Assembly (NCBI GenBank): GCA_023666145.1 | Contig: JAMPCO010000003.1 | Span: 3,027 to 67,026, forward strand | Source of the DNA: Prevotella sp. | Lineage (GTDB): Bacteria; Bacillota; Clostridia; Christensenellales; UBA1242 | DNA length: 64,000 bases | Reading direction: 5' to 3' | Shown: piece by piece, positions 21,350 to 36,349 of the stretch | How positions within the stretch are numbered: position 1 is the stretch's first letter | Layout of the letters: every line of letters begins with the position of its first letter | Made by a program: the position numbers and the translations under genes | The notes under the pieces: model-generated | Seen by the model: only the letters and a program-made list of their open reading frames with translations | Told to the model about the DNA's origin: nothing | The model's database searches: none

Positions 21350-23320
21350 ATGGATTTCAAATTAGTGGCTCAGTACCAACCGACGGGTGACCAACCGCAA
21401 GCGATTGCGGCGTTAACCCAAGGTATCAAGGATGGTTTGCGCCACCAAGTTTTGTTGGGTGTGACGGGCAGTGGTAAGACTTTTACCATGGCGAACGTGA
21501 TTAAAAATGTGAACAAGCCTACCTTGGTGATTGCGCACAACAAAACTTTGGCGGCACAATTGTGTAACGAGTTTCGGGAATTTTTTCCCCAAAATCGCGT
21601 GGAATATTTTGTCAGTTATTACGATTATTACCAACCCGAAGCCTATTTGCCCGCGACCGATACTTACATTGAAAAGGACATGGCAATCAACGACGAAATC
21701 GATAAACTGCGCCACGCGGCAACCACGTCATTGTGCGAACGCAACGATACGATTGTTGTGGCTTCGGTATCCTGTATTTATGGCTTGGGTGAACCGCAAG
21801 AATATTTCAAAATGGGCATTTCGTTGCGCCCGGGCATGACGCTGAACCGCCGCGATTTGGTCACGCGTTTGGTCAACAATCAATACAAACGCGCCGATGT
21901 TGATTTTGTGCGGGGTAGTTTCCGCGCGCATGGCGATGTGGTGGATGTGATTCCGTCTTATGCTTCCAATGTGGCGGTGCGGATTCAATTTTGGGGTGAC
22001 GAAATCGATGGCATTTTCGAAATTGACGCTTTGACGGGACAAAAAATTTCTTCTTTGTCACATATCGCGATTTTCCCTGCTTCGCATTTTGCGGTGGGTT
22101 CGGAACGTTTACACGAAGCAATTGAAAAAATCCGTGCCGATTTAGCCATCCAAAAAAAGTTTTTTGATGATAACAACATGGTGGTGGAAAGTCATCGCAT
22201 TATCCAACGCACCAATTACGATTTGGAAATGTTGGCGGAATTGGGTTTTGTGAAAGGCATCGAAAATTACTCGCGTTACTTTGACGGGCGTCAACCAGGC
22301 GAACCGCCGTACACCTTGATGTCGTATTTTCCTGATGATTATTTGGTGTTTATTGACGAATCGCACATTACTGTCCCGCAAATTCGGGGGATGTTCAATG
22401 GCGATCGTGCCCGTAAAAAAGTGTTGGTCGATTTTGGTTTCCGTTTGCCGTCGGCCTACGATAACCGTCCCTTGAATTTTCAAGAATTTAACCAACGGTT
22501 GGGGCAGTGCATCTACGTATCGGCGACGCCTGAGCATTATGAATTGGATTTGGCGGGTGACCATGTGGTGGAGCAAATTATTCGCCCCACTGGATTGTTG
22601 GATCCAGTGGTGATTGTCCGTCCCAAAGACCACCAAGTCAGTGATGTTTTGCACGAAATCCGCACGGTGGCGGCGGGTAAAGGCAAAATTTTGGTCACGA
22701 CCTTAACCAAAAAAATGGCGGAAGATTTAACCGCATTCTTAACCGAAAATCAAGTGCGAGTGCGTTATTTACACAGCGAAATTGATACATTGGAACGTAC
22801 CGAGATTTTGACCGCGTTCCGTCAAGACCAATTTGATGTAATTGTGGGTATCAATTTGTTGCGAGAAGGTTTGGATTTGCCCGAAGTCGCATTGGTGGCA
22901 ATTTTGGATGCGGACAAGGAAGGTTTGTTTCGTTCTACGCGCGCTTTGATTCAAACAATTGGGCGGGCGGCGCGCAATGCACAAGCCCGGGTTATTTTGT
23001 ATGCCAACGCGGTCACCCCCAGTATGCAAGCCGCAATGGACGAAACGGCACGGCGCCGTCAAATTCAAATGGACTATAATACCAAGCACAACATCACGCC
23101 GCGCACGGTGTATAGTTCGATTAAAAATTCGCTTTACATTACCAAAAAAGCCAAGGGTGATACTACCGCAGAAAATTTGTCGGTGGAACAATTGACCGCG
23201 TTGATGAATACCGCCAGCCAGAACCTTAACTTTGAATTGGCGATTCAATACCGCGAACGGATTAACGCTTTACAAGCCAAAAAAGTGGGGCGCAAAGCAC
23301 CCAAAACCAAACCGAAATAA
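21350..23320 (+). CDS. uvrB: Excinuclease ABC subunit B
   Basis: 656 aa. Motifs: YQPTGDQPQAI, Walker A GVTGSGKT, YYDYYQPEAY, the helicase motifs, and the C-terminal UVR domain (ELAIQYRERINAL). Confidence 0.97.
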   Translation: MDFKLVAQYQPTGDQPQAIAALTQGIKDGLRHQVLLGVTGSGKTFTMANVIKNVNKPTLVIAHNKTLAAQLCNEFREFFPQNRVEYFVSYYDYYQPEAYLPATDTYIEKDMAINDEIDKLRHAATTSLCERNDTIVVASVSCIYGLGEPQEYFKMGISLRPGMTLNRRDLVTRLVNNQYKRADVDFVRGSFRAHGDVVDVIPSYASNVAVRIQFWGDEIDGIFEIDALTGQKISSLSHIAIFPASHFAVGSERLHEAIEKIRADLAIQKKFFDDNNMVVESHRIIQRTNYDLEMLAELGFVKGIENYSRYFDGRQPGEPPYTLMSYFPDDYLVFIDESHITVPQIRGMFNGDRARKKVLVDFGFRLPSAYDNRPLNFQEFNQRLGQCIYVSATPEHYELDLAGDHVVEQIIRPTGLLDPVVIVRPKDHQVSDVLHEIRTVAAGKGKILVTTLTKKMAEDLTAFLTENQVRVRYLHSEIDTLERTEILTAFRQDQFDVIVGINLLREGLDLPEVALVAILDADKEGLFRSTRALIQTIGRAARNAQARVILYANAVTPSMQAAMDETARRRQIQMDYNTKHNITPRTVYSSIKNSLYITKKAKGDTTAENLSVEQLTALMNTASQNLNFELAIQYRERINALQAKKVGRKAPKTKPK

Positions 23321-23330
23321 AAAAAAAGAC

Positions 23331-23359
23331 TGGACATTTCGCGGCAAAAAAATTATATT
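23331..23359 (+). promoter_or_regulatory. sigmaA-type promoter of the nfeD-SPFH pair (leaderless-type)
   Basis: TGGACA (23331-23336), 17 nt spacer, TATATT (23354-23359), 8 nt, then ATG (23368). No Shine-Dalgarno. Confidence 0.5.
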
Positions 23360-23367
23360 ATAGTAAT

Positions 23368-23811
23368 ATGACAACAACAATGATTGTAGTTTGGGCAGTG
23401 ATTATGGCGTTCACCTTGTTATTAGAGTTTTTCACCGTGGACTTCTTTGCTTGCTGCTTTTCGGTCGGTGCTTTGGTCGCTTTGATTTTGGCGGCTTGCG
23501 GCGTGAACATTTATTGGCAAGTGGGTGTGTTCTTTGTGTTGACCATTGTGGCAATTGGGGCGACACGTCCGTTGGTTAAACGTTTCATGAAAAAACCGAC
23601 GGTGCCGACCAACGTCGACCAAAACTTCGGTAAAACCGCACGTCTGTTGGCGGACGTCGTGGACGGTCATTCTTCGATTAAAATTAACGATGTCGTGTGG
23701 CAAGTGGCATGCGATACTAATTTGAAACAAAATGATTTGGTCACCATTGAAAGTGTGGAAGGTAACAAAATGGTCGTGAAAGCGGCCGAGAAGGAGGAAA
23801 GTAAAAAATGA
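23368..23811 (+). CDS. NfeD-family membrane protein
   Basis: 147 aa with N-terminal TM helices and a C-terminal OB-like soluble domain (GKTARLLADVVDGHSSIKINDVVWQVACD). ATGA overlap with the SPFH gene, which is the classic NfeD-SPFH pairing. Confidence 0.85.
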   Translation: MTTTMIVVWAVIMAFTLLLEFFTVDFFACCFSVGALVALILAACGVNIYWQVGVFFVLTIVAIGATRPLVKRFMKKPTVPTNVDQNFGKTARLLADVVDGHSSIKINDVVWQVACDTNLKQNDLVTIESVEGNKMVVKAAEKEESKK

Positions 23812-24719
23812 CACCTTGGTTAATTGCGATTATTGTTATCGGTGTGGCGTTGGTTGTAATTTTTGCACTGTCGGTGCGCATTGTTAAGCAAGGAACGGCG
23901 GTCATCGTCGAACGTTTGGGTAAGTACCACAAAACTTTGGGTACGGGCTTGAAGTTCATTGTGCCGTTCATTGACCGTGCTTTGCCGATGATCAGTTTGA
24001 AAGAACAAGTGGCCGATTTCAAACCACAGCCAGTGATTACCAAAGATAACGTTACCATGCAAATTGACAGTGTGGTGTTTTTTCAAATCGTCGACCCGAA
24101 ATTGTACACTTACGGGATTGAACGTCCGATGCAAGCGATTGAAAATTTAACCGCCACTACTTTACGTAATATTGTCGGCGAATTAGAATTGGACGAAACG
24201 TTAAGCAGTCGTGATACCGTGAACACCAAAATGCGCGAAATCATTGACACGGCGACCGACCCATGGGGCATTAAAGTTAACCGTGTGGAATTGAAAAACA
24301 TTTTACCACCCGCCGCGATTCAAGAAAGCATGGAAAAGCAAATGCGTGCCGAACGTGAACGTCGGGAAAACATTTTGCTGGCGGAAGGTGAAAAGCGCAG
24401 TAAAATTTTGGTTGCCGAAGGTGAAAAAGAAGCGGAAATTTTGAAAGCCGAAGCGCGTAAGATTGCGTTATTAACCGAAGCCGAAGGTCAACAACAAGCG
24501 ATTGAAAAAATTGTGGCGGCAAAACCCGACGCGGCTTATTTGACTTTGCAAGGTTATGAAGCCTTGAAAGCGTTGGCGGTGGGCGAAGCCACCAAAATCA
24601 TAGTCCCGAACGATTTAGCCAATGTAGCGACTTTGTTTTCCACGATTAAAGAAACGGTTGCAATGCCCGCAACGGACAAGGGCACAACCACCACCAAAGC
24701 CAAAAGTAAACAAAAATAA
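23808..24719 (+). CDS. SPFH/band-7 (stomatin/QmcA-like) protein
   Basis: N-terminal anchor, then VKQGTAVIVERLGKYHKTL..., the PHB domain, and an EA-rich coiled coil. Confidence 0.92.
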   Translation: MTPWLIAIIVIGVALVVIFALSVRIVKQGTAVIVERLGKYHKTLGTGLKFIVPFIDRALPMISLKEQVADFKPQPVITKDNVTMQIDSVVFFQIVDPKLYTYGIERPMQAIENLTATTLRNIVGELELDETLSSRDTVNTKMREIIDTATDPWGIKVNRVELKNILPPAAIQESMEKQMRAERERRENILLAEGEKRSKILVAEGEKEAEILKAEARKIALLTEAEGQQQAIEKIVAAKPDAAYLTLQGYEALKALAVGEATKIIVPNDLANVATLFSTIKETVAMPATDKGTTTTKAKSKQK

Positions 24720-24746
24720 GCCGTGGTTGTGACCTGGAAATGAGAC

Positions 24747-24779
24747 AAGACTTGCCCATGCGTGGCAAGTCTTTTTTTA
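24747..24779 (+). terminator. Rho-independent terminator after the SPFH gene
   Basis: A 10-bp perfect stem, aagacttgcc (24747-24756) with ggcaagtctt (24764-24773), a 7-nt loop, then a T-run. Confidence 0.8.
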
Positions 24780-24790
24780 GAAAATGGCGA

Positions 24791-24819
24791 TTGACAAAAT
24801 TGCTAAATGTGTTCATAAT
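24791..24819 (+). promoter_or_regulatory. sigmaA-type promoter of the RND transporter gene (leaderless or 1-2 nt leader)
   Basis: TTGACA (24791-24796), 17 nt spacer, CATAAT (24814-24819), 8 nt, then ATG (24828). No Shine-Dalgarno. Confidence 0.6.
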
Positions 24820-24827
24820 AAGTATTT

Positions 24828-27800
24828 ATGGCAACGAATCAAGAACAACTGGATCAAAATATTAAAGAAAATTGGTTTGCAAAAATCGGCGTACAAAAAC
24901 CATATACCGTGTTTGTTTGCATTATGGCGATCATCATTTTGGGTGTTTTTGCTTTTTCCAAAATGTCGGTGGATTTGTTTCCGTCGATGAACTTACCTTA
25001 CGCGGTGGTGGTGTTAAGCCCCAACGAAACCTACTTAATGGAACGTTTGAACGAGACCATGGTGCAATCCGCAATGGAAAAAGCGGCAACATATTATGAA
25101 GCCAATCCCGACGCTGATATCAATCAAGATGCCGCGGCTTTGCGCACAATTTTGCAAGGCGACTCGGCGTCTTTGATGACTAACTTAATGGCAGCCATTA
25201 AGGACAACAACATGGTTGCGTCTGCTTATAGTAGCCTACTCCAAGATGAAAGCAGTTATCAAGACCTTTTGGAATCCGTGATGCCCGATGATACGAAAAT
25301 GGAAACTTTAACCGATACGGCGTTGCAAGCCTTGTCGAGTGTGAACGGGATCCAAAACACCAGCAGCACAACCATGTTGTCGGTTGGTTTAGTGATGATT
25401 ACGCTGGAATACAACAGCGACGCGACGGTCGATTTGACCGAATTGGCTTTGGCGTTTGAAAACATCGCGTTGGACGATGCCACCACCTATGGTACCAAGT
25501 ACAATAAAACTATTTTGAAAATTGACCCGTCTTTGTTGGCGGTCATGTATGTCACGGTTTCTTACCAAGGCACGAATGACGCCCAAACCCAAACTTGGTT
25601 AGAAAATAATGTGCTGAACAAAGTTGCGACGACGGTGGGTGTTGGTACGGTCTCATCCAATATTGAATCCAGTGTGACCAACCAAAACGAGGCTTGGGAA
25701 GGTTCTGGTGACGAATTAGTTAAAACTTACAGCATTTCGATTCAAAAGAGCAGTAACGCGGTTACCGCCGAAGTTTGCGCGAATGTGTTGGTAACTTTGG
25801 ACAAAATTAAAGCGGAAAACCCTGGTTTCTCTTACGACGTGACCAGCAGTCAAGGCGAATACATTAACCAAACAATTGGTTCGGTCGGTGAAAATTTGAT
25901 TGTCGGTGGTTTGTTGGCTTTGTTGATTTTGTTCTTGTTCTTGCGCTCGGTCAAAATGACTTTGGCGATTGGTATTTCGATTCCGTTGGCTTTGGTCGGC
26001 ACCTTTGTGGCCATGTATTTCATGGGCATCAATTTGAACATTATTTCCATGTCGGGCTTAGCCTTAGCGGTGGGGATGTTGGTGGATAACTCGGTGGTGG
26101 TTTTGGAAAACATTTACCGTCTGCGCAGTAAGGGGTTCCCGCTGAAAGAGGCGTGCAGTAAGGGGGCTTCCCAAATTATGTTGGCGATGTTGGCATCGTC
26201 TTTGACGACTATTTGCGTGTTCTTCCCCATGTTCTTTTTGGAAGGCTTGATGATGCAAATCTTTACCGATTTGATTTGGGTCGTGATTTTGTCGTTACTG
26301 TGTTCGTTCGTCGTGGCGGTCATGTTCTTGCCGTCGATTGTGGCGACCTTCAAAATTAACCCGAAACCCGAGAAAAAAATTGCCGTGGTTGCTGATGCTG
26401 AACAAAAACCAACATTCTGGCAAAAAGTGCGCACTGGTTGGGGTAAATTTACCGCGGGTGCGAACCAAGTTTTTGACAAAGTGTTACGTTTCGCGATTGA
26501 TAAAAAATTGTTAACTGTGGCATTGGCGTTGGTCTTGTTCGTGGGGTCGGTCTTATTGGTATTTGTGAACGGTTTCATTTTGATGCCGTCCACCGATGAA
26601 GGTACGTTAACGGTGTCGGCGGTCTTGAACGCGCATGGACAAACGGTTGACAACAAACAAGAAGAATTAGCGCAACCGTTGTACGAAGAAGTGATGAATA
26701 TTTTGGGTAGCGACGTCGAAAAGTGCGTGGTAGAATACGACGCGGGTTCCAGCATCTTATCCAGTGGGGCACAAGTGTCATTGGAAATCAAATTAAAAGA
26801 CAACCGTAGTCTGACCACCGACCAAGCGAGTGAAAAGGTTTACAAGGCCTTACAAAATTACCACAATGAAAACTTCGATGACATTGAAGTTTCCGCTTCT
26901 TCTTTAACCAGCAGTATGATGTCGAGTGATGTTTCGGTTACCTTGGCGGTCGACGCCAGTGCCACCGCCGATGCATCGGCATACAAAGTTGCGTGTGGCG
27001 TTTTGGACGATTTTAATGCGGCGTTAGAAGCCAAATTCGCGGACAAAATGGACGACTTAGGTATCCGCGCGGTGGTTTATGACCAAAACCAAGGCATTAA
27101 AATTGTCAAGAGTAATGGTAAGTACGCGGCAACGGTGACCATTAAGGCGAACCCCAGTGCGGATACGAACCAAATTCAATCCAAATTAAACCAATATCTG
27201 GACGAATTGATGGACAGTGACCAATTCAAAGACCAAGCCATTACCATCTTGGATAACGGTTTGGAAGGCGAAATGGAAAGTACTTACACCTCTATGGGGA
27301 TTGCGTTGCTGGTTGGTTTCTTGTTGATTTATCTGGTCATGGTGGCAATTTTCCAATCGTTCTTAATGCCGTTTATCATTTTGATTTGTGTGCCGCTGGG
27401 CTTCACGGGGGCGTTCTTGCTGTTGGCGATGTGCGGTATGCCGTTATCAATTCCTGCTTTAATCGGTTTCTTAATCTTGATGGGAGTGGTCATCAACAAT
27501 GGTATTTTGGCGGTCGATTACACCAACCAAGCCCGTCGCGACGGCTTGTCGGTCAAAGAAGCGTTAGTGTCGGCGATGCATACCCGTATACGTCCGATCT
27601 TCATGACCGCGCTAACGACAGTGTTGGCCATGGTGCCCATGGCTTTCGGTTGGTCACTTTTCAATCAAGGTGGTAGCAGCGCGATTATGCAACCGTTAGC
27701 GGTCGTTTCGATTGGCGGATTGTTGTTTGGTACCGTAACGACGTTGATTGTGGTGCCCGCGTTTTATTCCATTTTCTGCCGCGATAAAAAAACTCAAATT

Positions 27801-27950
27801 GCACCGGTTACACCCACTACATCGGCGGAAGCGCCTGTTGTGACAACGGAAGCACCTGCTGAACCAGTTGAAACCGTGGCACAGCCTGTCAAAGCACCAC
27901 ACCCCGTGAAAGCAACAAAATCCGTAAAAACAGCACGACCAGTAAAATAA
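24828..27950 (+). CDS. RND-superfamily efflux transporter (AcrB/SwrC-like), no adjacent MFP gene
   Basis: 1040 aa with 12-TM RND architecture and two large extracytoplasmic loops (N-terminus WFAKIGVQKPYTVFVCIMAIIILGVFAF; LAVGMLVDNSVVVLENI). It ends in a Pro/Val/Lys-rich tail (PVKAPHPVKATKSVKTARPVK). Confidence 0.9.
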   Translation: MATNQEQLDQNIKENWFAKIGVQKPYTVFVCIMAIIILGVFAFSKMSVDLFPSMNLPYAVVVLSPNETYLMERLNETMVQSAMEKAATYYEANPDADINQDAAALRTILQGDSASLMTNLMAAIKDNNMVASAYSSLLQDESSYQDLLESVMPDDTKMETLTDTALQALSSVNGIQNTSSTTMLSVGLVMITLEYNSDATVDLTELALAFENIALDDATTYGTKYNKTILKIDPSLLAVMYVTVSYQGTNDAQTQTWLENNVLNKVATTVGVGTVSSNIESSVTNQNEAWEGSGDELVKTYSISIQKSSNAVTAEVCANVLVTLDKIKAENPGFSYDVTSSQGEYINQTIGSVGENLIVGGLLALLILFLFLRSVKMTLAIGISIPLALVGTFVAMYFMGINLNIISMSGLALAVGMLVDNSVVVLENIYRLRSKGFPLKEACSKGASQIMLAMLASSLTTICVFFPMFFLEGLMMQIFTDLIWVVILSLLCSFVVAVMFLPSIVATFKINPKPEKKIAVVADAEQKPTFWQKVRTGWGKFTAGANQVFDKVLRFAIDKKLLTVALALVLFVGSVLLVFVNGFILMPSTDEGTLTVSAVLNAHGQTVDNKQEELAQPLYEEVMNILGSDVEKCVVEYDAGSSILSSGAQVSLEIKLKDNRSLTTDQASEKVYKALQNYHNENFDDIEVSASSLTSSMMSSDVSVTLAVDASATADASAYKVACGVLDDFNAALEAKFADKMDDLGIRAVVYDQNQGIKIVKSNGKYAATVTIKANPSADTNQIQSKLNQYLDELMDSDQFKDQAITILDNGLEGEMESTYTSMGIALLVGFLLIYLVMVAIFQSFLMPFIILICVPLGFTGAFLLLAMCGMPLSIPALIGFLILMGVVINNGILAVDYTNQARRDGLSVKEALVSAMHTRIRPIFMTALTTVLAMVPMAFGWSLFNQGGSSAIMQPLAVVSIGGLLFGTVTTLIVVPAFYSIFCRDKKTQIAPVTPTTSAEAPVVTTEAPAEPVETVAQPVKAPHPVKATKSVKTARPVK

Positions 27951-27951
27951 G

Positions 27952-27980
27952 TTGTCAAAAATCCCGTTTCACGCTATGGT
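27952..27980 (+). promoter_or_regulatory. sigmaA-type promoter (leaderless-type) for the 163-aa membrane protein gene
   Basis: TTGTCA (27952-27957), 17 nt spacer, TATGGT (27975-27980), 8 nt, then ATG (27989). Confidence 0.5.
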
Positions 27981-27988
27981 ATAAATAT

Positions 27989-28480
27989 ATGGATTGGTTA
28001 TGGCTGTTTTTAAGTGTTGTCGGTTTAGGACTGTTGTGGCTATTGATTATGGGGGTAGAAAAATTAACGGAGCGTTTGAAAGCCCACGATGAAGCCCGTC
28101 AACGTGCCGCCCAACGTATCGCCGAACGTACCGCCGTCGCCGAAGCCGATTTATTAGCAAAACAATATGCCAAAGCCAGTGCCCAAGATTACATTGCCAA
28201 TGCCGATGCTGACGACCCCGCCAATGCGGAAAAGTTAGCGGAAGCCATTAACACTTTGTCTGCGGACGAACTGGTGGATTCGTTAACCATGCGTGCTTTC
28301 GGTGCCCCCGAAGGTACGGACGGAATTACCGCTAAACAGTCAGCCTTTGACCACCTGCACGCCCAAAAAGTGGTGGCAAGGGGTAACGGCGTCACTCCCG
28401 TTAAGGTTAAATCGTCGGGTAAATCGGCACTCAGTAAGTCCGAACAAAAAATGTTGAAAAAAATTAAGCAAGGGGATTGA
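27989..28480 (+). CDS. Hypothetical N-terminally anchored protein with Ala/Glu-rich helical region
   Basis: 163 aa. N-terminal TM helix WLWLFLSVVGLGLLWLLIMGV followed by helical AEA-rich sequence. No recognisable family. Confidence 0.6.
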   Translation: MDWLWLFLSVVGLGLLWLLIMGVEKLTERLKAHDEARQRAAQRIAERTAVAEADLLAKQYAKASAQDYIANADADDPANAEKLAEAINTLSADELVDSLTMRAFGAPEGTDGITAKQSAFDHLHAQKVVARGNGVTPVKVKSSGKSALSKSEQKMLKKIKQGD

Positions 28481-28530
28481 CTTTTTACCCCAATTTAGGG
28501 TATCATTATACTCGAAAGGGGAAAACGAAA

Positions 28531-29643
28531 ATGAAAAAAATCAATTTATTATTTAGTGCGTTGATGATTTGTTTGGCGCTTTTGGTCGCGGGTGGTGCGA
28601 CGGTACCCGCCGTTCAATTCCACGCCCAGGCTTTAGCGGTACGCACAGCCAGCAACAGTAATGGTCAATTATCTGGCATCGAGTTATTCGACAGTGTAGG
28701 ACGTTATGCCGTCAGCCAAGCGGACTTGAAAGTGGGTGAAACTTTCCAATTTTTTGGTTATGATTGGCGCGTGGTTTACGTTAATGCTGAACAAAAAGTG
28801 GCGACCTTCTGGATGGCGGACCCGTACACGAAAACCAATTTTAATGCCACCACCCGTGCGGGTAATTATATCTTCAAGGACGGTACGAATATTTGGTGCA
28901 ATGGCTACCGCGACACAATTTGGTGTAATGAAGAGAACATCAACAAGGGTGATGTTTCGTTAGGTGAAAGTGACATCCGTAAATTTTTAACCAACGAAGC
29001 CAGTACGATCATTGATAATTCAGATTACGAAAAATATGCGAACAAAGTCGTTAAAGGTTATGTCGTAGGTACCAACGAAGTCAATGACAATGCAAAACAA
29101 ACTATTCCGTATCTTGCTTACAGCAAGGATTCTGTTGATCAAGTTGAAGAATTGAAAGAATCGACCAAGGAATTAACTGCTTACTATAATTTGGGTGAAA
29201 ATGAACGTTTATGGTTGCCGTCGGTTGACGAAATTAAAAACATTTGGCAATTGCCCGAAACCATGCTGGGATGGACGGACAATACAGTTTCCAATCGCGC
29301 TTGGTTACGTACGCCAGATTATCAACAACCTGGCGAAAGTCAATATGTCATGGCGGTTTGTTCAGAAGAAACTGTGAGTGGTAATTATTTTACTTACAAA
29401 GCCGTTAAGCAAGACGCGGGTGTGCGCCCAGCGATTCATTTGAACATTGAAAATATTGAAACCGAATATCAAGAACATTTGGATGCTACCGGCAATGGCA
29501 GCAAGGGCGGTTGGTTTGATGATGATTGGTTGAAAGCCTTGTTCATTGTGGTTTGTGTCTTGGGTATTGTGGGTGTGGCTTTGGTCATCATCGCGGTTGT
29601 CATCAAAGCGCGCAAAAACAAAGCCGAATCACAACAAGCATAA
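28531..29643 (+). CDS. Secreted DUF6273-like protein with C-terminal membrane anchor
   Basis: The ATG at 28531 is preceded by an AAGGGGA Shine-Dalgarno. Signal peptide MKKINLLFSALMICLALLVAGGA. It carries the W..V......W.LP..DE...WLRTP...GVRPAIHLN pattern characteristic of DUF6273-type domains. C-terminal TM helix ALFIVVCVLGIVGVALVIIAVVI. Confidence 0.75.
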   Translation: MKKINLLFSALMICLALLVAGGATVPAVQFHAQALAVRTASNSNGQLSGIELFDSVGRYAVSQADLKVGETFQFFGYDWRVVYVNAEQKVATFWMADPYTKTNFNATTRAGNYIFKDGTNIWCNGYRDTIWCNEENINKGDVSLGESDIRKFLTNEASTIIDNSDYEKYANKVVKGYVVGTNEVNDNAKQTIPYLAYSKDSVDQVEELKESTKELTAYYNLGENERLWLPSVDEIKNIWQLPETMLGWTDNTVSNRAWLRTPDYQQPGESQYVMAVCSEETVSGNYFTYKAVKQDAGVRPAIHLNIENIETEYQEHLDATGNGSKGGWFDDDWLKALFIVVCVLGIVGVALVIIAVVIKARKNKAESQQA

Positions 29644-29664
29644 ACACTCAAATAATTCTTTGTA

Positions 29665-29693
29665 AAAACAACTCCGCAAGGGGTTGTTTTTTG
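29665..29693 (+). terminator. Rho-independent terminator
   Basis: An 11-bp stem pairs aaaacaactcc (29665-29675) with ggggttgtttt (29680-29690), including one G-U pair. GCAA tetraloop, then a T-run. Confidence 0.8.
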
Positions 29694-29741
29694 TTCCGTC
29701 GGCAGCAACGAAAAATTACGTTTTAATTCGTGGGGCAACCG

Positions 29742-29750
29742 TGCTATAAT
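29742..29750 (+). promoter_or_regulatory. Extended -10 promoter of the ABC-F gene (leaderless-type)
   Basis: TGcTATAAT (29742-29750), 7 nt, then ATG at 29758. The track start ATG at 29749 lies inside the -10 hexamer and is therefore unlikely. Confidence 0.6.
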
Positions 29751-29757
29751 GGCAAGT

Positions 29758-31305
29758 ATGATTCAAGTAGTCAATGTATCTTTGCAATATGGCAAACGGG
29801 TTTTGTTCAAAGATGTTAATTTGAAATTTTTGCCAGGGGAATGTTACGGCATTATCGGTGCCAACGGGGCGGGCAAATCAACGTTTTTAAAAATTTTATC
29901 GGGCGAAATTACCCCGAATAAAGGGGAAGTGGTGGTTGGTAAAAACCAACGGATTTCGACCCTGGCGCAAAACCAAAATGCGTTTGATGATTTATCCGTG
30001 ATTAATACTGTTATTGGCGGGCACCAACGTTTGGCAGAAATCGTCGCGTTAAAAGAAAAATATTATGCGTTGCCCACCATGACCGAAGCGCAGGGTAATG
30101 AATTGGGCGCGTTGGAAGCCGAATTTGCCGAATTGGACGGTTGGGATGCCGACAGCAACGCGCGGATCATGTTGTCGGGTTTGGGCGTCAGCGAAGAATT
30201 TCACGACCAACAAATGAAAGACTTGGATGCGAAACTGAAAGTTAAAGTTTTGTTGGCGCGGGCTTTATTTGGTAATCCCGATATTTTAATTTTGGACGAA
30301 CCAACCAATAATTTGGATTTGGCGGGTACGCATTGGTTGGAAGAATTTTTGTTGGAATTTAAAAACATTACCATTATTGTGTCGCACAATCGTCATTTTT
30401 TGAACCAAGTTTGTACGCACATTTGCGATGTTGACTTTAACCAAATCAATATGTTTGTGGGGAACTACGATTTTTGGTACGAAACCAGCCAATTATTGTT
30501 GAAGCAACAAAAGGAAGCCAACAAGAAAGCCGAAGCGCGTGCACAAGAATTGAAAGACTTTATTGCACGGTTTTCCGCGAACGCCAGTAAATCACGCCAA
30601 GCCACCAGTCGTAAAAAAGAATTGGAAAAATTGACGATTGAAGACATCAAACCGTCATCGCGTAAATATCCGTACATCAATTTCGAATGTGCGCGTGAAC
30701 CAGGTAACGAAATTTTGGCGGTGGAAAATTTGACCGTCAACGGCTATTTCCGCAATGTCTCTTTCCGCGTTAACAAGGGGGAAAAAATCGCTTTTTTAAC
30801 CGATAAAAGTGTGCGCATGGACAAATTGTTTAACTGTATCATGGGCATTGAAAAAGCCGACAGCGGTACCGTCACCATCGGCAAGACCATTACGACTTCG
30901 TATTTACCCGCGGACTACCGCAGTTATTTCGAAGGGGTCAATTTGAATTTGTTAGATTGGTTGAAACAGTATTCCCAAGACACTAACGAAACCTTTATCC
31001 GCAGTTGGTTAGGTCGGATGTTGTTTTCGGGGGAAGAAGCCTTAAAAAAAGCCAGTGTTTTGTCGGGTGGGGAAAGAGTGCGTTGTATGTTAGCGAAAAC
31101 CATGTTGGAACAAGGTAATCTGTTGATTTTGAACGAACCCACCAACCATTTGGATTTGGAAAGCATTACCGCCTTAAACCAAGGGATGATGCGTAGTAAG
31201 GCCGTAATGTTGTTTTACACCAGTGATGAAGAAATTATCGATACGGTGGCAACCCGCGTGATTGAAATTACTGCCGACAAAATCCACGACCGCGTTTTAG
31301 TTTAA
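29758..31305 (+). CDS. ABC-F family ATPase (YbiT/YkpA-like) with one degenerate ATP site
   Basis: Two ABC domains joined by a charged linker. NBD1 has GANGAGKST, ILILDEPTNNLD and SHNRHFLN. NBD2 has signature LSGGE, but its Walker A position reads FLTDKSVRMDKL and its Walker B reads LLILNEP. Confidence 0.92.
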   Translation: MIQVVNVSLQYGKRVLFKDVNLKFLPGECYGIIGANGAGKSTFLKILSGEITPNKGEVVVGKNQRISTLAQNQNAFDDLSVINTVIGGHQRLAEIVALKEKYYALPTMTEAQGNELGALEAEFAELDGWDADSNARIMLSGLGVSEEFHDQQMKDLDAKLKVKVLLARALFGNPDILILDEPTNNLDLAGTHWLEEFLLEFKNITIIVSHNRHFLNQVCTHICDVDFNQINMFVGNYDFWYETSQLLLKQQKEANKKAEARAQELKDFIARFSANASKSRQATSRKKELEKLTIEDIKPSSRKYPYINFECAREPGNEILAVENLTVNGYFRNVSFRVNKGEKIAFLTDKSVRMDKLFNCIMGIEKADSGTVTIGKTITTSYLPADYRSYFEGVNLNLLDWLKQYSQDTNETFIRSWLGRMLFSGEEALKKASVLSGGERVRCMLAKTMLEQGNLLILNEPTNHLDLESITALNQGMMRSKAVMLFYTSDEEIIDTVATRVIEITADKIHDRVLV

Positions 31306-31817
31306 TTACGTTCGTTGGGATTATGGCGGGGACTAACTCTCGGCATCGGTTGCGTGTCGTGCCGTTTTTCCGAAATCGGCGCACGATGGTTTCCAGGTTT
31401 TCTGTCATGGTTACGGGGCGCACCGTCGTATAACGCGGGGATAGGTTCTTCCGCATGGAAACGGGGACGTTCTTGGTCGTCGTTTGGGTTTGGTTCTGCT
31501 GTTTGGTCGGGATAAATCTCCAAAGTACGCGGTTGGTCATCCACTGGTTGATAGTTTGCTACGTGGGCGACCACAGGGGTATTTTGCCTTTCCAATTGAT
31601 GGATTTGGCTCTTTAATTGGCGATTATGTAACGCCGTGGCACCCAACAGGCTGCTGGTAACGGCTACGGCCAAAGCCATAACCGACATCGTAATTCCAGT
31701 CAAAATTTTGTGGCGCTGTCGTTGACGATGTTCATCCGCCACGGCGCTGTTGGAATTTTCCACCACGACGTTTCCTTGGTAATTTCTTTGGTGCGATTGA
31801 GTTGTAAATGATTGCAT
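31302..31817 (-). CDS. Hypothetical single-pass membrane protein, Pro/Arg/His-rich C-terminal region
   Basis: 171 aa. GGAGGTG Shine-Dalgarno lies 7 nt upstream of the ATG at 31817. One TM helix (ILTGITMSVMALAVAVTSSLLGA), followed by a short coiled segment and a disordered tail. A sigmaG-like promoter lies upstream. Confidence 0.7.
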   Translation of the reverse strand: MQSFTTQSHQRNYQGNVVVENSNSAVADEHRQRQRHKILTGITMSVMALAVAVTSSLLGATALHNRQLKSQIHQLERQNTPVVAHVANYQPVDDQPRTLEIYPDQTAEPNPNDDQERPRFHAEEPIPALYDGAPRNHDRKPGNHRAPISEKRHDTQPMPRVSPRHNPNERN

Positions 31818-31836: not shown

Positions 31837-31866
31837 TAGTATCTACCGCCAGAGATAAAATATTCA
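31837..31866 (-). promoter_or_regulatory. Forespore sigmaG-type promoter candidate
   Basis: Minus strand: TGAATA (31866-31861), 17 nt spacer, GATACTA (31843-31837). The Bacillus sigmaG consensus is TGAATA-N17/18-CATACTA. A 19-nt leader with GGAGGTG Shine-Dalgarno follows. Confidence 0.5.
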
Positions 31867-31870
31867 CGCC

Positions 31871-32134
31871 TTAGTAAATTTTACAGCAGCAATCGTTGCA
31901 ACCGTGGTCTTGTTCCGGTTTTTCACAAGGCGACGGTTCTTTTTTCTCTTGGCAGACACATTCAAAGCGTTTTTCGCGACATTCGCATTTTTCTTCACGA
32001 TGTTCGCAGCGGTCTTCACATTTGTTTTCGCACTTGCATTCACAGCGGTTAACTGGCTTGCAGGTGTTGTGACAACGGCAGCAACGGAAAACCCAGCAGA
32101 ACAGGTCGCCAACAGTTGGACATTGATTACACAT
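31871..32134 (-). CDS. Cysteine-rich small protein (87 aa, 21 Cys)
   Basis: Perfect AGGAGG Shine-Dalgarno 8 nt upstream of the ATG at 32134. The sequence is MCNQCPTVGDLFCWVFRCCRCHNTCKPVNRCECKCENKCEDRCEHREEKCECREKRFECVCQEKKEPSPCEKPEQDHGCNDCCCKIY. Two other long ORFs overlapping here have no Shine-Dalgarno. Confidence 0.8.
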   Translation of the reverse strand: MCNQCPTVGDLFCWVFRCCRCHNTCKPVNRCECKCENKCEDRCEHREEKCECREKRFECVCQEKKEPSPCEKPEQDHGCNDCCCKIY

Positions 32135-32192
32135 CTTTGGTACCTCCTACGTACAGCATACGCGCACAGAAAAAAGAATGTGCCATCCCGCG

Positions 32193-32978
32193 TTAGGCGA
32201 CGGTGAGCGCGTGTTGGCGGCTGTGTTCCGCAATGACAGCCGTGGTGATATGGTAGGCCAGAATTTGTTGGTAAGTCGTGGATTGCAGCAATTGGCGTTC
32301 GTTGGCATTGGTCAAAAATCCGCATTCAATTAAAACGGCGGGGCAAGGCGAGTGTTCGACTAAATTGAAATCGGTGGGTTTAGCGGTTTTGTAAATTGGT
32401 AAGCCGCTGTCGTTAAATTGGTTTTGAATGGCGGTGGCGTAGGCTTGACTGCCCGTGGTTTCGTTGGCGTAAAAACATTGTAAACCACTGACCGAAGTTA
32501 ACGGGTAGGTATTTTGGTGAATTGAAATCACCAGGTCGGGGTTAAGACTGCGAATCTTTGCGCGACGTTTAGCCATGTCTTCCACTTTTTTATTACGGGC
32601 GTAAGGCGAATTCAGACTCTCACTGTCAACACGGGTCAAGGAAACTGCGCAACCGTGGTTACGTAATTCTTGCGCCAAAACTTGGACAATTTGTAAATTT
32701 AATCCCGCCTCACTGACCCCGTCAACGCAGGCACCGTTGTCGAAACCACCGTGTCCCGCGTCCAAAACCACATGAAACTGCTCTGGGGCAATGACCGCGG
32801 TGGAACCTTGCAACGCATCAATCCACAGCCCTACGCCCAGCACAACAAAACACAAACTAATTGCTAAGTAACGGATTTCTATGTATATTAAAATTGCATG
32901 CGTAAAATGCGGGAATACCACTTCCAAAGGGGGTTGGCCAAAGATTTGCTTGTGGCCACTTTCTTTTTTAGTTTGCAA
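32193..32978 (-). CDS. cwlD: Germination-specific N-acetylmuramoyl-L-alanine amidase CwlD (maximal ORF; true start unresolved, probably 32855-32894)
   Basis: Amidase_3 motifs are present: VVLDAGHGGFDNGA, VISIHQN, AVLIECGFLTN. An N-terminal signal-anchor (RYLAISLCFVVLGVGLWI) matches CwlD. The track start (TTG at 32978) would overlap the divergent ABC gene and its promoter. Confidence 0.85.
   Translation of the reverse strand: MQTKKESGHKQIFGQPPLEVVFPHFTHAILIYIEIRYLAISLCFVVLGVGLWIDALQGSTAVIAPEQFHVVLDAGHGGFDNGACVDGVSEAGLNLQIVQVLAQELRNHGCAVSLTRVDSESLNSPYARNKKVEDMAKRRAKIRSLNPDLVISIHQNTYPLTSVSGLQCFYANETTGSQAYATAIQNQFNDSGLPIYKTAKPTDFNLVEHSPCPAVLIECGFLTNANERQLLQSTTYQQILAYHITTAVIAEHSRQHALTVA
32861..32889 (+). 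promoter_or_regulatory. sigmaA-type promoter of the ABC half-transporter pair (leaderless-type)
   Basis: TTGCTA (32861-32866), 17 nt spacer, TATATT (32884-32889), 8 nt, then ATG (32898). It lies inside the 5' end of the cwlD reading frame on the other strand. Confidence 0.55.
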
Positions 32979-34643
32979 GAAATTTTGAATACGGTTTACC
33001 CGCTGGTCTTAAAAAATTTGGTCACCGAAAAGATTGAAAACGACACGGGGATGTTGCCCAGCATGGGAAACTTCTTAATCAGTGCGGGCATCGTGTTAGG
33101 ATTGTTGGTGATCATTTTCTTTGTTTCGTTTTATGCGCGGAATCGGGTTAGTGTCTATGGTGCCAAATGCCGTCGCAACGCCCGCAATCTGCTTTATGAT
33201 AAAATGACGCGTGTGCCGACCAATGTGTTGTACGAATACGGTACCAGCAAATTCTTGTCGTCGATGATGGAAGACACGACTTGGGTGAAATACCGTCACG
33301 AACAGTTTTTGCAAGCCGCGATTTATTTTGTGGTGACGATCTTAGGTAGTTGTGTGTTAATCATGACCTTGTCGCCGATTTATGTGCTGTTTATTGTGGC
33401 CGCGGTGGCGGTCGAAATCGGGATTTTAATGGTCCACCGTGCCATCATCAGCAAACGAATGCCCGCGGCGGTAGACGCATACGACAAATCCTTTGTGGCG
33501 ACACGCGAAAGCATCGCGGGCGCACGCGATATTCGTATCTTGGGTAAACAGTCCGAACGCTCCGCTACCGCCGCCCGTCAAAACAAGGCTTTAGCCCGCG
33601 AAGTTTTTGACATCGACCAATCCAAACACATTTTTGAATGCAGCAACAACATCGTTTTCGGCATTGTGACGTTTGGCATTATTTTATTCGGGGCTTTATC
33701 TTACGATGGTGTGCATTTGGCGGAACAGTTGGTAATTATCAACACCATTTTGCAATACATCACCCTGTGTACGACGGCGACGCTCAATATCTTCAAATTG
33801 CTGATTAACCCGATGACGCGTGGGCGGGTCGCCTACGCCAGAATTGATCAGTTCATGCATTTACCCGAAGAAGACATCGATCAGGGACTAACCAAATTAG
33901 ACACCGAATTTGGCAGTTCTTTGGTTTTGTATCAAGTCAGCCATCGTTTCTGGAATGGGCGTAAAACCATTGAGGATTTGTCGATGGAATTACAAAAAGG
34001 CAAAATGGTGGCTTTTTGTGGGGAAGTCGGTGCGGGGCGCACAACGTTAATCAAGATTTTATTACGTTATTTTGACCCGACGACAGGCATGGTTTTGGTG
34101 AACGGCATCAATATCAAAGACTTTAACAAACGTTTTTATCGTGCCAAAATTATCTCGTACTGTCCCGCTTATCCCGAATTTTTGTCTGGCACAGTGCGGG
34201 AAAATATCCGCCTTTTCAACCCTGAGGTTACCGACGAACAAATTTTAGCCGCGTTTAACGAAATCGGGGCGGCTAATCTAGCCATTTTACCGTCGTTTTT
34301 GGATACACCATTGTCGGTACGCGCACAGTTGCCACAAGATGTCAAAAGTTTAATCAATGTGGTGCGTTGTATTTTGAAACCAGCGGAGTTTTATGTTTTT
34401 GACGGCAGTTTCATCAATTTATCCAACGATGTGGTGCAAAGTACTTTACACAAATTGCGTGCGGAAAACAAAGCCTGTGTGTTCACAACCATCAATCCTT
34501 TAATTTGCGAAAGTGCCGACGAAGTGTTTTTTGCACAGAGCGACCACCATTATGTGAAAGGAACGCACACTTCATTGTTGGCGGAAAATCAAGAATACGC
34601 GGCTTTCTTCATGAAAGCCGAGCAATTGGAGGCGCAAGGATGA
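32898..34643 (+). CDS. ABC exporter half-transporter (TMD-NBD) with degenerate NBD
   Basis: 581 aa with a 6-TM type-I exporter domain and an NBD. The NBD has Walker A GEVGAGRTT (K to R), signature LSVRAQ, Walker B FYVFDGS and H-loop TTINPL. Confidence 0.88.
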   Translation: MRKMREYHFQRGLAKDLLVATFFFSLQEILNTVYPLVLKNLVTEKIENDTGMLPSMGNFLISAGIVLGLLVIIFFVSFYARNRVSVYGAKCRRNARNLLYDKMTRVPTNVLYEYGTSKFLSSMMEDTTWVKYRHEQFLQAAIYFVVTILGSCVLIMTLSPIYVLFIVAAVAVEIGILMVHRAIISKRMPAAVDAYDKSFVATRESIAGARDIRILGKQSERSATAARQNKALAREVFDIDQSKHIFECSNNIVFGIVTFGIILFGALSYDGVHLAEQLVIINTILQYITLCTTATLNIFKLLINPMTRGRVAYARIDQFMHLPEEDIDQGLTKLDTEFGSSLVLYQVSHRFWNGRKTIEDLSMELQKGKMVAFCGEVGAGRTTLIKILLRYFDPTTGMVLVNGINIKDFNKRFYRAKIISYCPAYPEFLSGTVRENIRLFNPEVTDEQILAAFNEIGAANLAILPSFLDTPLSVRAQLPQDVKSLINVVRCILKPAEFYVFDGSFINLSNDVVQSTLHKLRAENKACVFTTINPLICESADEVFFAQSDHHYVKGTHTSLLAENQEYAAFFMKAEQLEAQG

Positions 34644-36349
34644 AAATGCCCCACAAGAAGTCGGTCTTTCTGCGCGCCATGGCTTATTTCAAGCCGTTGC
34701 GTTGGCGCATTTTAATTGTGATTCTGTGCGGGATTGTGGGGATTGCTTTGTATTCTTTTATGCCAGGTTTGACGGCCGATGCGTTAAACGAATTTGAAAC
34801 TTGGGGCTTGAACCACGATTTATCGGTCGTTTTGCAACCGCTGATTTTGTACTTGATTTTGTGTCTTCTGTCGGAAACGTTCGCGCTGATTTGCAAATGC
34901 ATCATCATCAATTACGAATACAAAGTAACCTTGGGTATTATGGACGATGCCCGCCAAAAATTGGACGTGGTGCCGTTGTCCTTTATTGAGCAATTTGAAA
35001 TCAGCAAAACCACGCACCAAATTGCGGTCGGGCGTCGGTTATTGCAAGAATGTTTATCCATGATTTATCAAATTTGCCGTACCATTTTCTTCTTCGTTTT
35101 GAACATTGTGATGATGTTATCTTTGAACGGTACTTTAAGTCTCTTGGTGATTATTTCTTTGCCCGTGACCTTAATTATTGCGCAAATTGTCGTCAACAAA
35201 ACCCAAAAATATTACACGCGCAAAGAAGAAGCGAACGGGCGGATTTATGACTTTACCGAACAGCACGCGACTTTGCACGGCTTTTTCCAAGAAAACGGGA
35301 TTGTTGGTGAAGACGAATTTCAATCGATTAACGGGTACAAAGGCATTGTCGGCGTGGATACCGTGGTTGGTTTGAATGAAACTTACATCAGTTTTCTTTC
35401 TAATTTTATGTATTTGGCGATTACGGTGGTTTTCGGTATCTTGGCGATCAATGGGGCTTTGTCTATGGCCGACTTCGCCATTTTGCCCGCTTTCTTATTG
35501 TATAGTTCACGCTTCCTGTCCAACACTAAAATCATTACGACGGCCTCGAACATCATCCAACCAACCGAAAGTTACGCCAAAGTCTTTTTCGGGATTTTGG
35601 ATTGTCCCGATGACGTGACCGCGGACGAAGATGTCAACATCAAAAAAATTGACGGGAGCATCGTTTTTGACCATGTATCAACCGACAAAGTCAAAGACAT
35701 TACGTTTGAAATTCCCTTTGGTAGTAGTGTCGCCTTTTTGGAAGAAGACAATGTTACGGGTTCCGCGATTGTGAATTTAATGACGAAATTGGAATTGCCC
35801 AAGAGCGGCCAAATCAAAGTGAACAACATTGATTTGGCACGAATCCGCAGTAAGAAATTCTACGAACGCGTAGGGATGTGCTTCGACCGTCCGTTCTTGA
35901 TTGACGCAACGATTGCCGAAAACATTATGTACGGGGTGGGAAAAACTTTGCCCGAAAACGTGATTCAAGCCACCCAAATGTTTGGGTTTGACCAATTTAT
36001 CCGTTTGCTGCCACACGGCTACAACACCCGTTTAACCGAAAATACGGTTCTTTTAACCAACGCGGAACAACAAGCCGTCAATTTGTCGCGAACAGTATTG
36101 CACGCACCTGACTTATTGATTTTGAACCACGCTTTGAATTGTTTTGATACGGCAACCGAAAAAAAATGTAACGATGTGATTATTAACAAATTGAAAAACC
36201 GTACCCGTGTGTTCGTGACGACACAAATCAAAACGATTCAAAACGTTGACCGCATTTATGTTTGCAAAGGTGGGCGCATTGTCGAAACGGGTTCGCACGC
36301 CGAACTGATGGCGTTGCAAGGTGAATACTACCGCCGATACAAGAGTTAA
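34640..36349 (+). CDS. ABC exporter half-transporter (TMD-NBD) with strongly degenerate NBD
   Basis: The ATG at 34640 (ATGA overlap, GGAGG Shine-Dalgarno 7 nt upstream) gives MKMPHKKSVFLRAMAYFKPLRWRIL. The protein has 6 TM helices. In the NBD the Walker A position reads FLEEDNVTGSAI, the signature is LTNAE, Walker B is LLILNHA and the H-loop is TTQIKT. The C-terminal GSHAELMALQGEYYRRY is typical of the family. Confidence 0.88.
   Translation: MKMPHKKSVFLRAMAYFKPLRWRILIVILCGIVGIALYSFMPGLTADALNEFETWGLNHDLSVVLQPLILYLILCLLSETFALICKCIIINYEYKVTLGIMDDARQKLDVVPLSFIEQFEISKTTHQIAVGRRLLQECLSMIYQICRTIFFFVLNIVMMLSLNGTLSLLVIISLPVTLIIAQIVVNKTQKYYTRKEEANGRIYDFTEQHATLHGFFQENGIVGEDEFQSINGYKGIVGVDTVVGLNETYISFLSNFMYLAITVVFGILAINGALSMADFAILPAFLLYSSRFLSNTKIITTASNIIQPTESYAKVFFGILDCPDDVTADEDVNIKKIDGSIVFDHVSTDKVKDITFEIPFGSSVAFLEEDNVTGSAIVNLMTKLELPKSGQIKVNNIDLARIRSKKFYERVGMCFDRPFLIDATIAENIMYGVGKTLPENVIQATQMFGFDQFIRLLPHGYNTRLTENTVLLTNAEQQAVNLSRTVLHAPDLLILNHALNCFDTATEKKCNDVIINKLKNRTRVFVTTQIKTIQNVDRIYVCKGGRIVETGSHAELMALQGEYYRRYKS

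Follow-up and report, generated by a model that had tools for sequence, protein, structure and literature searches.

A family of YbiT-type ABC-F proteins with one canonical ATP site in uncultured Clostridia

The 64,000 nt stretch of DNA analysed here (the window; contig JAMPCO010000003.1 of assembly GCA_023666145.1) belongs to an uncultured member of the Clostridia, close to Christensenellaceae and living in the rumen or gut, and carries at 29758..31305 on the forward strand a gene for a protein of the ABC-F group of ATP-binding cassette (ABC) proteins, hereafter the query. One of the two composite ATP sites of this protein is canonical, whilst the other is altered at every element. The same arrangement is found throughout a family of orthologues, which is under purifying selection and is nested within the clade that holds Escherichia coli YbiT. 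A degenerate signature in YbiT itself, and the frequent occurrence of degenerate sites in ABC proteins, were already known; what this family adds is a clean, widespread and natural single-site ABC-F. Judged from these sequences, the query is probably a functional housekeeping factor of the YbiT type, acting at the ribosomal E site, in which one ATP would both clamp and release the protein and the second site would stay free of nucleotide.

Motif states of the two composite sites

Each composite site draws on both nucleotide-binding domains (NBDs): site 1 is formed by the Walker A, Q-loop, Walker B and H-loop of NBD1 with the signature of NBD2, and site 2 by the reciprocal set. Residue numbers are counted from ATG 29749, the start of the mechanically called open reading frame (ORF). 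Fractions of 80 refer to the genome set, composed of 80 species-representative orthologous loci (63-98% identity), whilst entropies and counts out of 118 are taken from the family alignment. The elements, together with the P-site tRNA-interaction motif (PtIM) linker that separates the domains, are as follows.

29857..29883 (+), NBD1 Walker A GANGAGKST, residues 37-45, site 1: canonical; Lys43 in 80/80, entropy 0 bits
29956..29976 (+), NBD1 Q-loop STLAQNQ, site 1: Gln74 present, 80/80
30220..30249 (+), NBD1 signature position DLDAKLKVKV, residues 158-167, site 2: LSGG replaced by L-D-A-K
30283..30318 (+), NBD1 Walker B and D-loop ILILDEPTNNLD, residues 179-190, site 1: canonical; Asp183 and Glu184 in 80/80
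30379..30396 (+), NBD1 H-loop VSHNRH, residues 211-216, site 1: His213 present, 80/80
30424..30684 (+), inter-domain linker (PtIM, ABC_tran_Xtn): better conserved than any other part of the protein
30736..30741 (+), NBD2 A-loop deletion site, between Val330 and Asn331: five residues gone and with them the aromatic residue; family-specific
30796..30828 (+), NBD2 Walker A position LTDKSVRMDKL, residues 350-360, site 2: Gly-rich loop and Lys both absent (Lys in 0/80)
30865..30888 (+), GTVTIGKT, residues 373-380: chance match to GxxxxGK[ST] in a beta-hairpin between the Walker A helix and the Q-loop
30898..30918 (+), NBD2 Q-loop SYLPADY, residues 384-390, site 2: Gln replaced by Ala388; Gln present in 61/80
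31060..31083 (+), NBD2 signature LSGGERVR, residues 438-445, site 1: canonical; S-G-G in 80/80
31120..31167 (+), NBD2 Walker B and D-loop LLILNEPTNHLDLESI, within which lies the Walker B LLILNEPTNHLD, residues 458-469, site 2: Asp replaced by Asn462; Asp present in 62/80, Glu463 retained in 79/80
31213..31233 (+), NBD2 H-loop FYTSDEE, residues 489-495, site 2: His replaced by Ser492; His present in 61/80

Eight residues of site 1 (Lys43, Gln74, Asp183, Glu184, His213 and Ser439-Gly440-Gly441) are each found in all 80 loci. The initial annotation, made from the sequence alone, had read this site as consensus on the basis of the NBD1 Walker A, Walker B and H-loop and the LSGGE of NBD2, and all of the strings that it quoted are present at the corresponding residues. 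It had also described every element of site 2 as altered. All five changes that it listed were found, but it overlooked the deletion in the A-loop of NBD2, which is a sixth lost element: canonical relatives have the aromatic residue in a K-x-F/Y motif and the sister group described below has K-T-I, whilst all sampled family members have a gap. It further overlooked that the losses of the Q-loop, the Walker B Asp and the H-loop are recent and confined to sublineages, that of the query included.

The sequence replacing the NBD1 signature is itself conserved, Asp160 being present in 108/118 members of the family alignment, Lys162 in 111/118, and Lys164 and Lys166 in 118/118. Across the genome set the signature Ser is retained in 0/80, with Asp in its place in 79/80, and the second Gly has been replaced by Lys in 78/80. 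The remnant of the NBD2 P-loop is variable, with entropies of 1.1-2.65 bits where the P-loop of NBD1 has 0 bits. Glu463 is found in 111/118. The D-loop of NBD2, which serves site 1, is near-invariant from Asn466 to Ile473 (Ser472 in 109/118, the other seven residues in 118/118).

The contention that NBD2 does not conceal an intact Walker A in a shifted register also held. The phmmer alignment to E. coli YbiT is gapless through this region, with TDKSVRMDK lying opposite GTNGVGKST; at the other elements of site 2, the query has YLPADY for the YYAQDH of the YbiT Q-loop, ILNEPTNHLD for IMD(E/Q)PTNHLD at Walker B, YTSDEE for VSHDRE at the H-loop and LDAKLKVKV for VAPGWKLRV at the NBD1 signature. 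A regular-expression search of NBD2 for the ABC-type pattern GxxGxGK[ST] found no match. The string GTVTIGKT was considered as a displaced P-loop and rejected: a four-way MAFFT alignment of both NBDs of the query and both NBDs of YbiT places GEVVVGKN (from NBD1 of the query), GNVSLDPN and GTVKWSEN (both from YbiT) at the same position, and the AlphaFold2 model has two beta-strands here (372-377 and 383-386), not a strand, loop and helix. As the other two reading frames of the region carry 14-15 stops, they harbour no P-loop hidden by a frameshift. Hence neither a shifted register nor a frameshift explains the missing motif. A direct BLASTP comparison of NBD1 with NBD2 was uninformative, with an E value of 1.9. 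The AlphaFold2 model has two NBD folds, with a mean predicted local distance difference test (pLDDT) score of 87.9 and values mostly above 90 in NBD2; it runs from strand through a five-residue P-loop to helix in NBD1, and from strand through two residues to helix in NBD2, such that the phosphate-binding loop of the latter is predicted to have been absorbed into the helix.

The database set, consisting of the best 120 homologues (96-65% identity), extends these states well beyond the query. In all 120 the signature of NBD1 is degenerate and the Walker A of NBD2 departs from the canonical form; in 119/120 the Walker A Lys of NBD2 is gone and the NBD1 signature reads LD(A/P)KxKVKV, the sole exception being P0017, a member of the sister group in which the Lys is present. 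Neither the NBD2 Walker A Lys nor the NBD1 signature Ser occurs in any of the species representatives (0/80 for each). Orthologues thus share the single-site architecture in 119/120 of the best matches and 80/80 loci, which on comparative grounds marks it as a trait of the family, far beyond chance.

Amongst orthologues close enough for synonymous divergence (dS) to be used, the ratio of nonsynonymous to synonymous substitution rates (dN/dS) is 0.014-0.096 in NBD2, 0.013-0.028 in NBD1 and near 0 in the linker. No orthologue at 65% identity or above contains a stop codon, and there is one in the span of the 64%-identical locus L042. The view of the initial annotation, that this is real evolution and not sequencing error, accords with the strong purifying selection on NBD2, which matches that on NBD1, and with the recurrence of its states in orthologues. 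The linker retains 82-100% identity at all distances, with a mean entropy of 0.49 bits against 0.92 and 1.04 bits for the NBDs, and its core, FxxRFSANASKSRQATSR, closely matches that of YbiT. The ABC-F gene is also the best-conserved gene of its neighbourhood. Members of the family are spread across uncultured gut and rumen Clostridia, where they are annotated merely as 'ATP-binding cassette domain-containing protein'; the named cluster members all derive from metagenome-assembled genomes of Clostridia, Eubacteriales or Firmicutes, and cultured species are found only in the sister group.

Placement in the YbiT clade and the order of loss

Pfam detects two ABC_tran stretches in the protein (119 bits against a cutoff of 25) and an ABC_tran_Xtn linker (PF12848) at residues 226-312, matched over the full profile with 73.9 bits against a cutoff of 25.9; the scan of the protein gave no membrane-domain match. 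The ABC-F identity proposed initially was upheld by subfamily hidden Markov models: the top NCBIfam model, by a wide margin, is the YbiT-type NF011646 (PRK15064) with 548.3 bits, the next best scoring 294.7, and the match pairs residues 4-514 of the query with profile positions 1-515 out of 530. The closest sequence in the PDB by phmmer is E. coli YbiT (9njf_Y), aligned in one stretch over residues 7-514 with an E value of 5.7e-132, whereas YheS and EttA reach 7.6e-68 and 7e-63. The top Foldseek matches are the ribosome-bound forms of the same protein, 9njf_Y and 9nlf_Y. The C-terminal extension that marks YheS and Uup is absent, the alignment extending to position 514 of 518 in the query and 515 of 530 in YbiT. 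Because its score lies beneath the cutoff of the YbiT model and the customary second site is missing, the protein is filed, on sequence criteria, as a divergent ABC-F of the YbiT clade and not as an equivalog. Two sites with canonical Walker A and Walker B motifs are the basis of the EQ2 trapping mutants. They are a usual property of ABC-F proteins, from which the query departs, and not a formal criterion of membership. Conservation of the linker and the ribosome-bound structural matches point indirectly to ATP-dependent binding of the protein at the ribosomal E site.

Relationships were read from a bootstrapped neighbour-joining tree only, with support out of 100. The family of the query is recovered with support of 100 and its own subclade with 92. 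Addition of the partly degenerate groups, including P0123 and P0146, gives a clade supported at 99, and further addition of E. coli YbiT and its relatives one supported at 86; a slightly wider clade, adding P0134 and P0148, reaches 100. The position of the family as the exact sister of the 544-aa (P0121) group has support of just 12, hence the larger clade alone is supported. In the tree, the family accordingly falls within the clade to which E. coli YbiT belongs and is separate from the types of Uup, YheS and EttA. A graded series emerges when representatives clustered at 50% identity are compared.

LSGG-type signature and intact NBD2 Walker A: for example P0125 (ISGGL) and P0137 (LSGGF)
Signature lost, Walker A still in place: VAPGW in E. 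coli YbiT and in P0136, IDAAI in P0126, IPTDR in P0148
The 544-aa group: signature LEGGQ, A-loop Ile, Walker A GPSSVAKTT, Q-loop Lys
The family of the query: A-loop, Walker A and signature all gone
Sublineages of that family: Q-loop Gln, Walker B Asp and H-loop His further lost, in varying combinations

The subclade to which the query belongs has lost all three of the Gln, Asp and His of site 2. Read from this series, the signature appears to have eroded first, then the Walker A and A-loop, and then, in sublineages, the Q-loop, Walker B Asp and H-loop. The elements that hold the nucleotide would hence have vanished clade-wide first, with the catalytic residues, left idle, eroding afterwards piecemeal, repeatedly and in different orders; this is the pattern of loss that a site no longer binding nucleotide should, on such comparisons, display.

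Another lineage of the YbiT clade, represented by the 523-aa P0146, has the signature LKNTL, Walker A G-TSLQKKA, a Q-loop Asn, Walker B DDPT and H-loop TTQDY. Its motifs suggest independent erosion, and thus that site 2 has been lost more than once. Two metagenomic proteins of P0121 type, P0017 and P0271 (about 826-828 aa), exceed the other members of their group by some 280 residues, and P0017 is recorded with a UvrD_C helicase domain (PF13361); they could be gene fusions or assembly chimeras.

The P0121-like sister group is 52-56% identical to the query and has a canonical site 1. As in the query, its site 2 is coherently non-canonical, with LEGGQ as the signature, Ile in the A-loop, GPSSVAKTT lacking the third Gly of Walker A, and Lys in place of the Q-loop Gln. 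Unlike the query, it retains the Lys and Ser/Thr of Walker A, the Asp-Glu of Walker B and the His of the H-loop, and it has no A-loop deletion; to judge from these residues, binding of nucleotide at site 2 may persist in this group. Its hosts are Fibrobacterota, Chitinispirillaceae, Spirochaetota (including the cultured Spirochaeta dissipatitropha), Elusimicrobia and others.

The closest known relatives, E. coli YbiT (PDB 9njf and 9nlf, among others) and Bacillus subtilis YkpA, resemble the query in domain order, length and the lack of a C-terminal extension; they are about 41-45% identical to it over the full length, with a near-identical PtIM linker core. E. coli YbiT likewise combines a canonical site 1 with a non-canonical NBD1 signature (VAPGW) at site 2. 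It differs in that the A-loop, Walker A, Q-loop, Walker B and H-loop of its NBD2 are intact, and ATP is seen in its site 2. The VAPGW signature has been described as 'strongly degenerate', with the catalytic competence of site 2 uncertain, and the site adopts closed but non-hydrolytic states (bioRxiv 10.1101/2023.06.15.543498). The initial annotation had contrasted the query with EttA, YbiT and Uup as ABC-Fs with two competent sites. As a usual property this stands, but in YbiT the signature has already degenerated (bioRxiv 10.1101/2023.06.15.543498); hence the query represents the far end of a trend visible in the YbiT subfamily and not a departure from a uniformly two-site family. No description of an ABC-F without a Walker A was found in the open-access papers searched, amongst them the classification of ABC-Fs by Murina et al. 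(2019, PMC6723617), a cryo-EM study of four paralogs and a review from 2026 (PMC13602936), although such absence is not proof.

Amongst ABC proteins more widely, heterodimeric exporters such as TM287/288, BmrCD and TmrAB, and proteins of the CFTR type, also have one catalytic composite site and another disabled by coordinated substitutions split across the domains, affecting for instance the Walker B and H-loop of one domain and the signature of the other. Degenerate ABC sites usually keep ATP bound, and the degenerate site of these exporters and CFTR normally keeps its Walker A as well as ATP, whereas site 2 of the query has lost the binding elements themselves (Lys in 0/80, A-loop deleted). 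These are, moreover, membrane transporters and the query a soluble ABC-F, so that the analogy is one of principle, with no homology beyond the ABC fold.

A one-ATP cycle and its alternatives

ABC-Fs have been reported to occupy the E site in an ATP-closed form, with the PtIM touching the P-site tRNA and release requiring hydrolysis; YbiT and YkpA have been reported to relieve poly-acidic and poly-basic stalls, and MtbEttA to use its two sites asymmetrically. By extension to the query, a single ATP at site 1 would close both domains into the form that fits the E site. The PtIM would then shift the P-site tRNA's acceptor stem, relieving stalls on sequences that are hard to translate (poly-acidic or poly-basic, as for YbiT and YkpA), and hydrolysis of the lone ATP at site 1 would free the factor from the ribosome. 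Site 2, most likely nucleotide-free, would act as a fixed interface between protein surfaces, possibly held where Asp160 and Lys162 of the old signature pair with Glu463, which is retained. What nucleotide hydrolysis does in ABC-Fs that counter stalling is itself considered unclear (PMC13602936).

Several points weigh against this account. The score of 548.3 bits against NF011646 lies below the curated equivalog cutoff of 762. Published structural models have ribosome binding require closure around two ATP. For ribosome binding, ATP stoichiometry and substrate class alike, the account extrapolates from relatives in E. coli and B. subtilis with only about 41-45% identity. Finally, basal members of the family keep the Gln, Asp-Glu and His of site 2, and their motifs could betoken a residual role of the site there.

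A more specific proposal, which we advance tentatively and regard as rather doubtful, is that the second ATP sandwich has been replaced by a permanent nucleotide-free latch between Asp160/Lys162 and Glu463, with the clamp hinged on one side and gated by site 1. A putative Lys162-Glu463 pairing, with Asp160, in place of ATP would explain the conservation of these residues while their neighbours drift. The one covariation signal is too weak to bear on this: every Arg162 is accompanied by Asp463, and the five sequences concerned belong to a single lineage. If true, the latch would set apart a one-stroke class of ABC-F with a mechanism of its own, and the second ATP of canonical ABC-Fs would be a regulatory add-on and not a requirement.

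Site 2 might alternatively still bind a nucleotide, or another phosphate ligand, in a non-canonical manner, as a non-hydrolytic structural or regulatory site of the kind found in the exporters and CFTR. That degenerate sites elsewhere usually keep ATP is in keeping with this, as are the retention of the Q-loop Gln, Walker B Asp-Glu and H-loop His by most family members (61-79 of 80) and the conserved charges of Asp160 and Lys162 in the substitute signature. However, all of the nucleotide holders are gone in every member (A-loop deleted, Walker A Lys in 0/80, signature Ser and Gly replaced), the P-loop remnant is variable and predicted to be absorbed into a helix, and the subclade of the query is also without the Mg-binding Asp, the Gln and the His. 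We consider this explanation improbable; from the motif states, such binding is possible in basal members and unlikely in the query.

Slightly less probable again is that NBD2 has been repurposed, the one ATP switch having been kept for a new partner or process in place of E-site rescue, with the old site 2 as a binding surface. The newly conserved Asp160 and Lys162 at the old signature would suit such a surface, and the sub-cutoff score against the curated YbiT model a new process, but the most conserved region of the protein is the linker, which contacts the ribosome and tRNA and is close to that of YbiT, the architecture and top structural matches are those of ribosome-bound ABC-Fs, and no conserved gene neighbour points to a new partner.

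It is very unlikely that the protein is an antibiotic-resistance (ARE) ABC-F, shielding the ribosome from drugs that bind the peptidyl transferase centre or the tunnel. The resistance models all score far beneath their cutoffs (Vga 215/725, CplR 198/780, Sal 184/725, Msr 182/680, OptrA 177/1450 and Lsa 163/750), and the linker is of YbiT length and not extended. No leader or attenuator precedes the gene: the intergenic sequence measures 105 nt, Rfam yielded 0 hits, and there are 7 nt between the -10 box and the ATG. The setting is chromosomal and syntenic across close relatives. These observations outweigh the presence of a resistance-nodulation-division (RND) pump in the neighbourhood and the fact that sequence does not cleanly divide ARE from housekeeping ABC-Fs (Murina et al. 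2019, PMC6723617). In a single sequence, the loss of five or six motifs from one domain could pass for gene decay or for an artefact of assembly or sequencing, but this is refuted by the intact frame, an NBD2 dN/dS of 0.01-0.1, alternative frames full of stops and the same motif states in independent assemblies from many hosts.

The family is a conserved and selected natural counterpart of a single-site mutant, and indicates that site 2 is dispensable for the role of YbiT-type factors, whatever that may be. The graded natural intermediates, from fully canonical proteins through E. coli YbiT, the P0121 type and the family to the subclade of the query, are directly testable. They make approachable the questions of whether two ATPs are needed, what the degenerate signature of E. 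coli YbiT means, and how the cost of each rescue event evolves.

Gene boundaries, transcription signals and neighbourhood

The gene and the signals adjacent to it are as follows.

29758..31305 (+), ABC-F gene (YbiT type), 515 aa from ATG 29758: identified by ORF, Pfam, NCBIfam and phmmer against the PDB
29749..31305 (+), mechanically called ORF, 518 aa
29722..29750 (+), promoter-like element, -35-like TTTAAT and extended -10 TGCTATAAT: layout conserved in loci L001-L017
29663..29695 (+), terminator-like hairpin and T-run 3' of the upstream gene: from direct reading of the sequence

The true start is most likely ATG 29758, as the consensus N-terminus of the family is MIQ and the conserved -10 box overlaps ATG 29749, which is probably unused. 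In the promoter-like element, TTTAAT is separated by 14 nt from the TG of the extended -10 and by 17 nt from the TATAAT hexamer. The extended -10 (TGnTAtAaT) ends 7 nt before ATG 29758, with no Shine-Dalgarno sequence, in loci L001-L017 (about 71% identity or more), whilst L018-L067, which lie further off within the family, carry ribosome-binding sites of the AGGAG type; from this layout, a leaderless ABC-F mRNA is possible in the clade of the query. The gene stands alone. A 105 nt intergenic region precedes it, and the terminator-like hairpin that follows the upstream gene implies that the ABC-F is its own transcription unit. A consensus scan of 29400-31700 for promoters and terminators gave counts at the level of the shuffled control and did not list the hairpin at 29663..29695, and an Rfam scan of the whole window at gathering thresholds gave 0 hits.

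Upstream of the ABC-F gene lie the following.

21350-23320, UvrB
23368-24719, NfeD/SPFH pair
24828-27950, RND-type transporter
28477-29643, protein that is secreted or in the membrane and matches DUF6273 weakly

The order of these genes (21350-29643) is conserved only among close relatives, and synteny around the ABC-F gene is similarly limited to the close lineage (L001-L014, L019, L023, L046 and partly L017). No conserved partner gene was found among the loci, nor a second ABC-F in the window. Functional inference from an operon was considered and rejected, given synteny in the close lineage only and the lack of a conserved partner.

On the other side, a convergent ORF of 171 aa (31302-31817, minus strand) has a stop that overlaps that of the ABC-F gene by 4 nt. 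It encodes one hydrophobic segment and has no Pfam match; synteny holds in 18 loci, though the sequence is conserved poorly (30-48% identity). Beyond it, also on the minus strand, is a Cys-rich ORF (31871-32134) of 87 aa with 21 Cys, arranged in repeated C-x-C-x motifs such as CECKCENKCEDRCEHREEKCECREKRFECVC. It is present in 16 orthologous loci, about ten of which align over essentially the whole length with E values down to 1.6e-35, whereas an overlapping 153-aa ORF in another frame (31864-32325) gives fragmentary alignments only. The Cys-rich frame is, on these alignments, probably the real gene.

Further downstream, two ABC exporter half-transporters (32898-34643 and 34505-36349, both on the plus strand) have degenerate NBDs as well. 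Subunit A has the Walker A GEVGAGRTT, in which Lys is replaced by Arg, the signature LPQDV, a Walker B (FYVFDG) without the catalytic Glu, and no H-loop His; subunit B has no Walker A (LEEDNVTGSA), the signature LTNAE, Walker B LLILNH and again no H-loop His. Therefore neither of the composite sites looks capable of hydrolysis. Every curated exporter model scores far beneath its cutoff. Across 16 orthologous loci these states are largely conserved, and the catalytic Glu is absent from both subunits throughout; the exceptions are a Lys in the Walker A of subunit A in 4/16, and two truncated matches to subunit B. From its motifs, the pair may be an ATPase-dead, exporter-like heterodimer.

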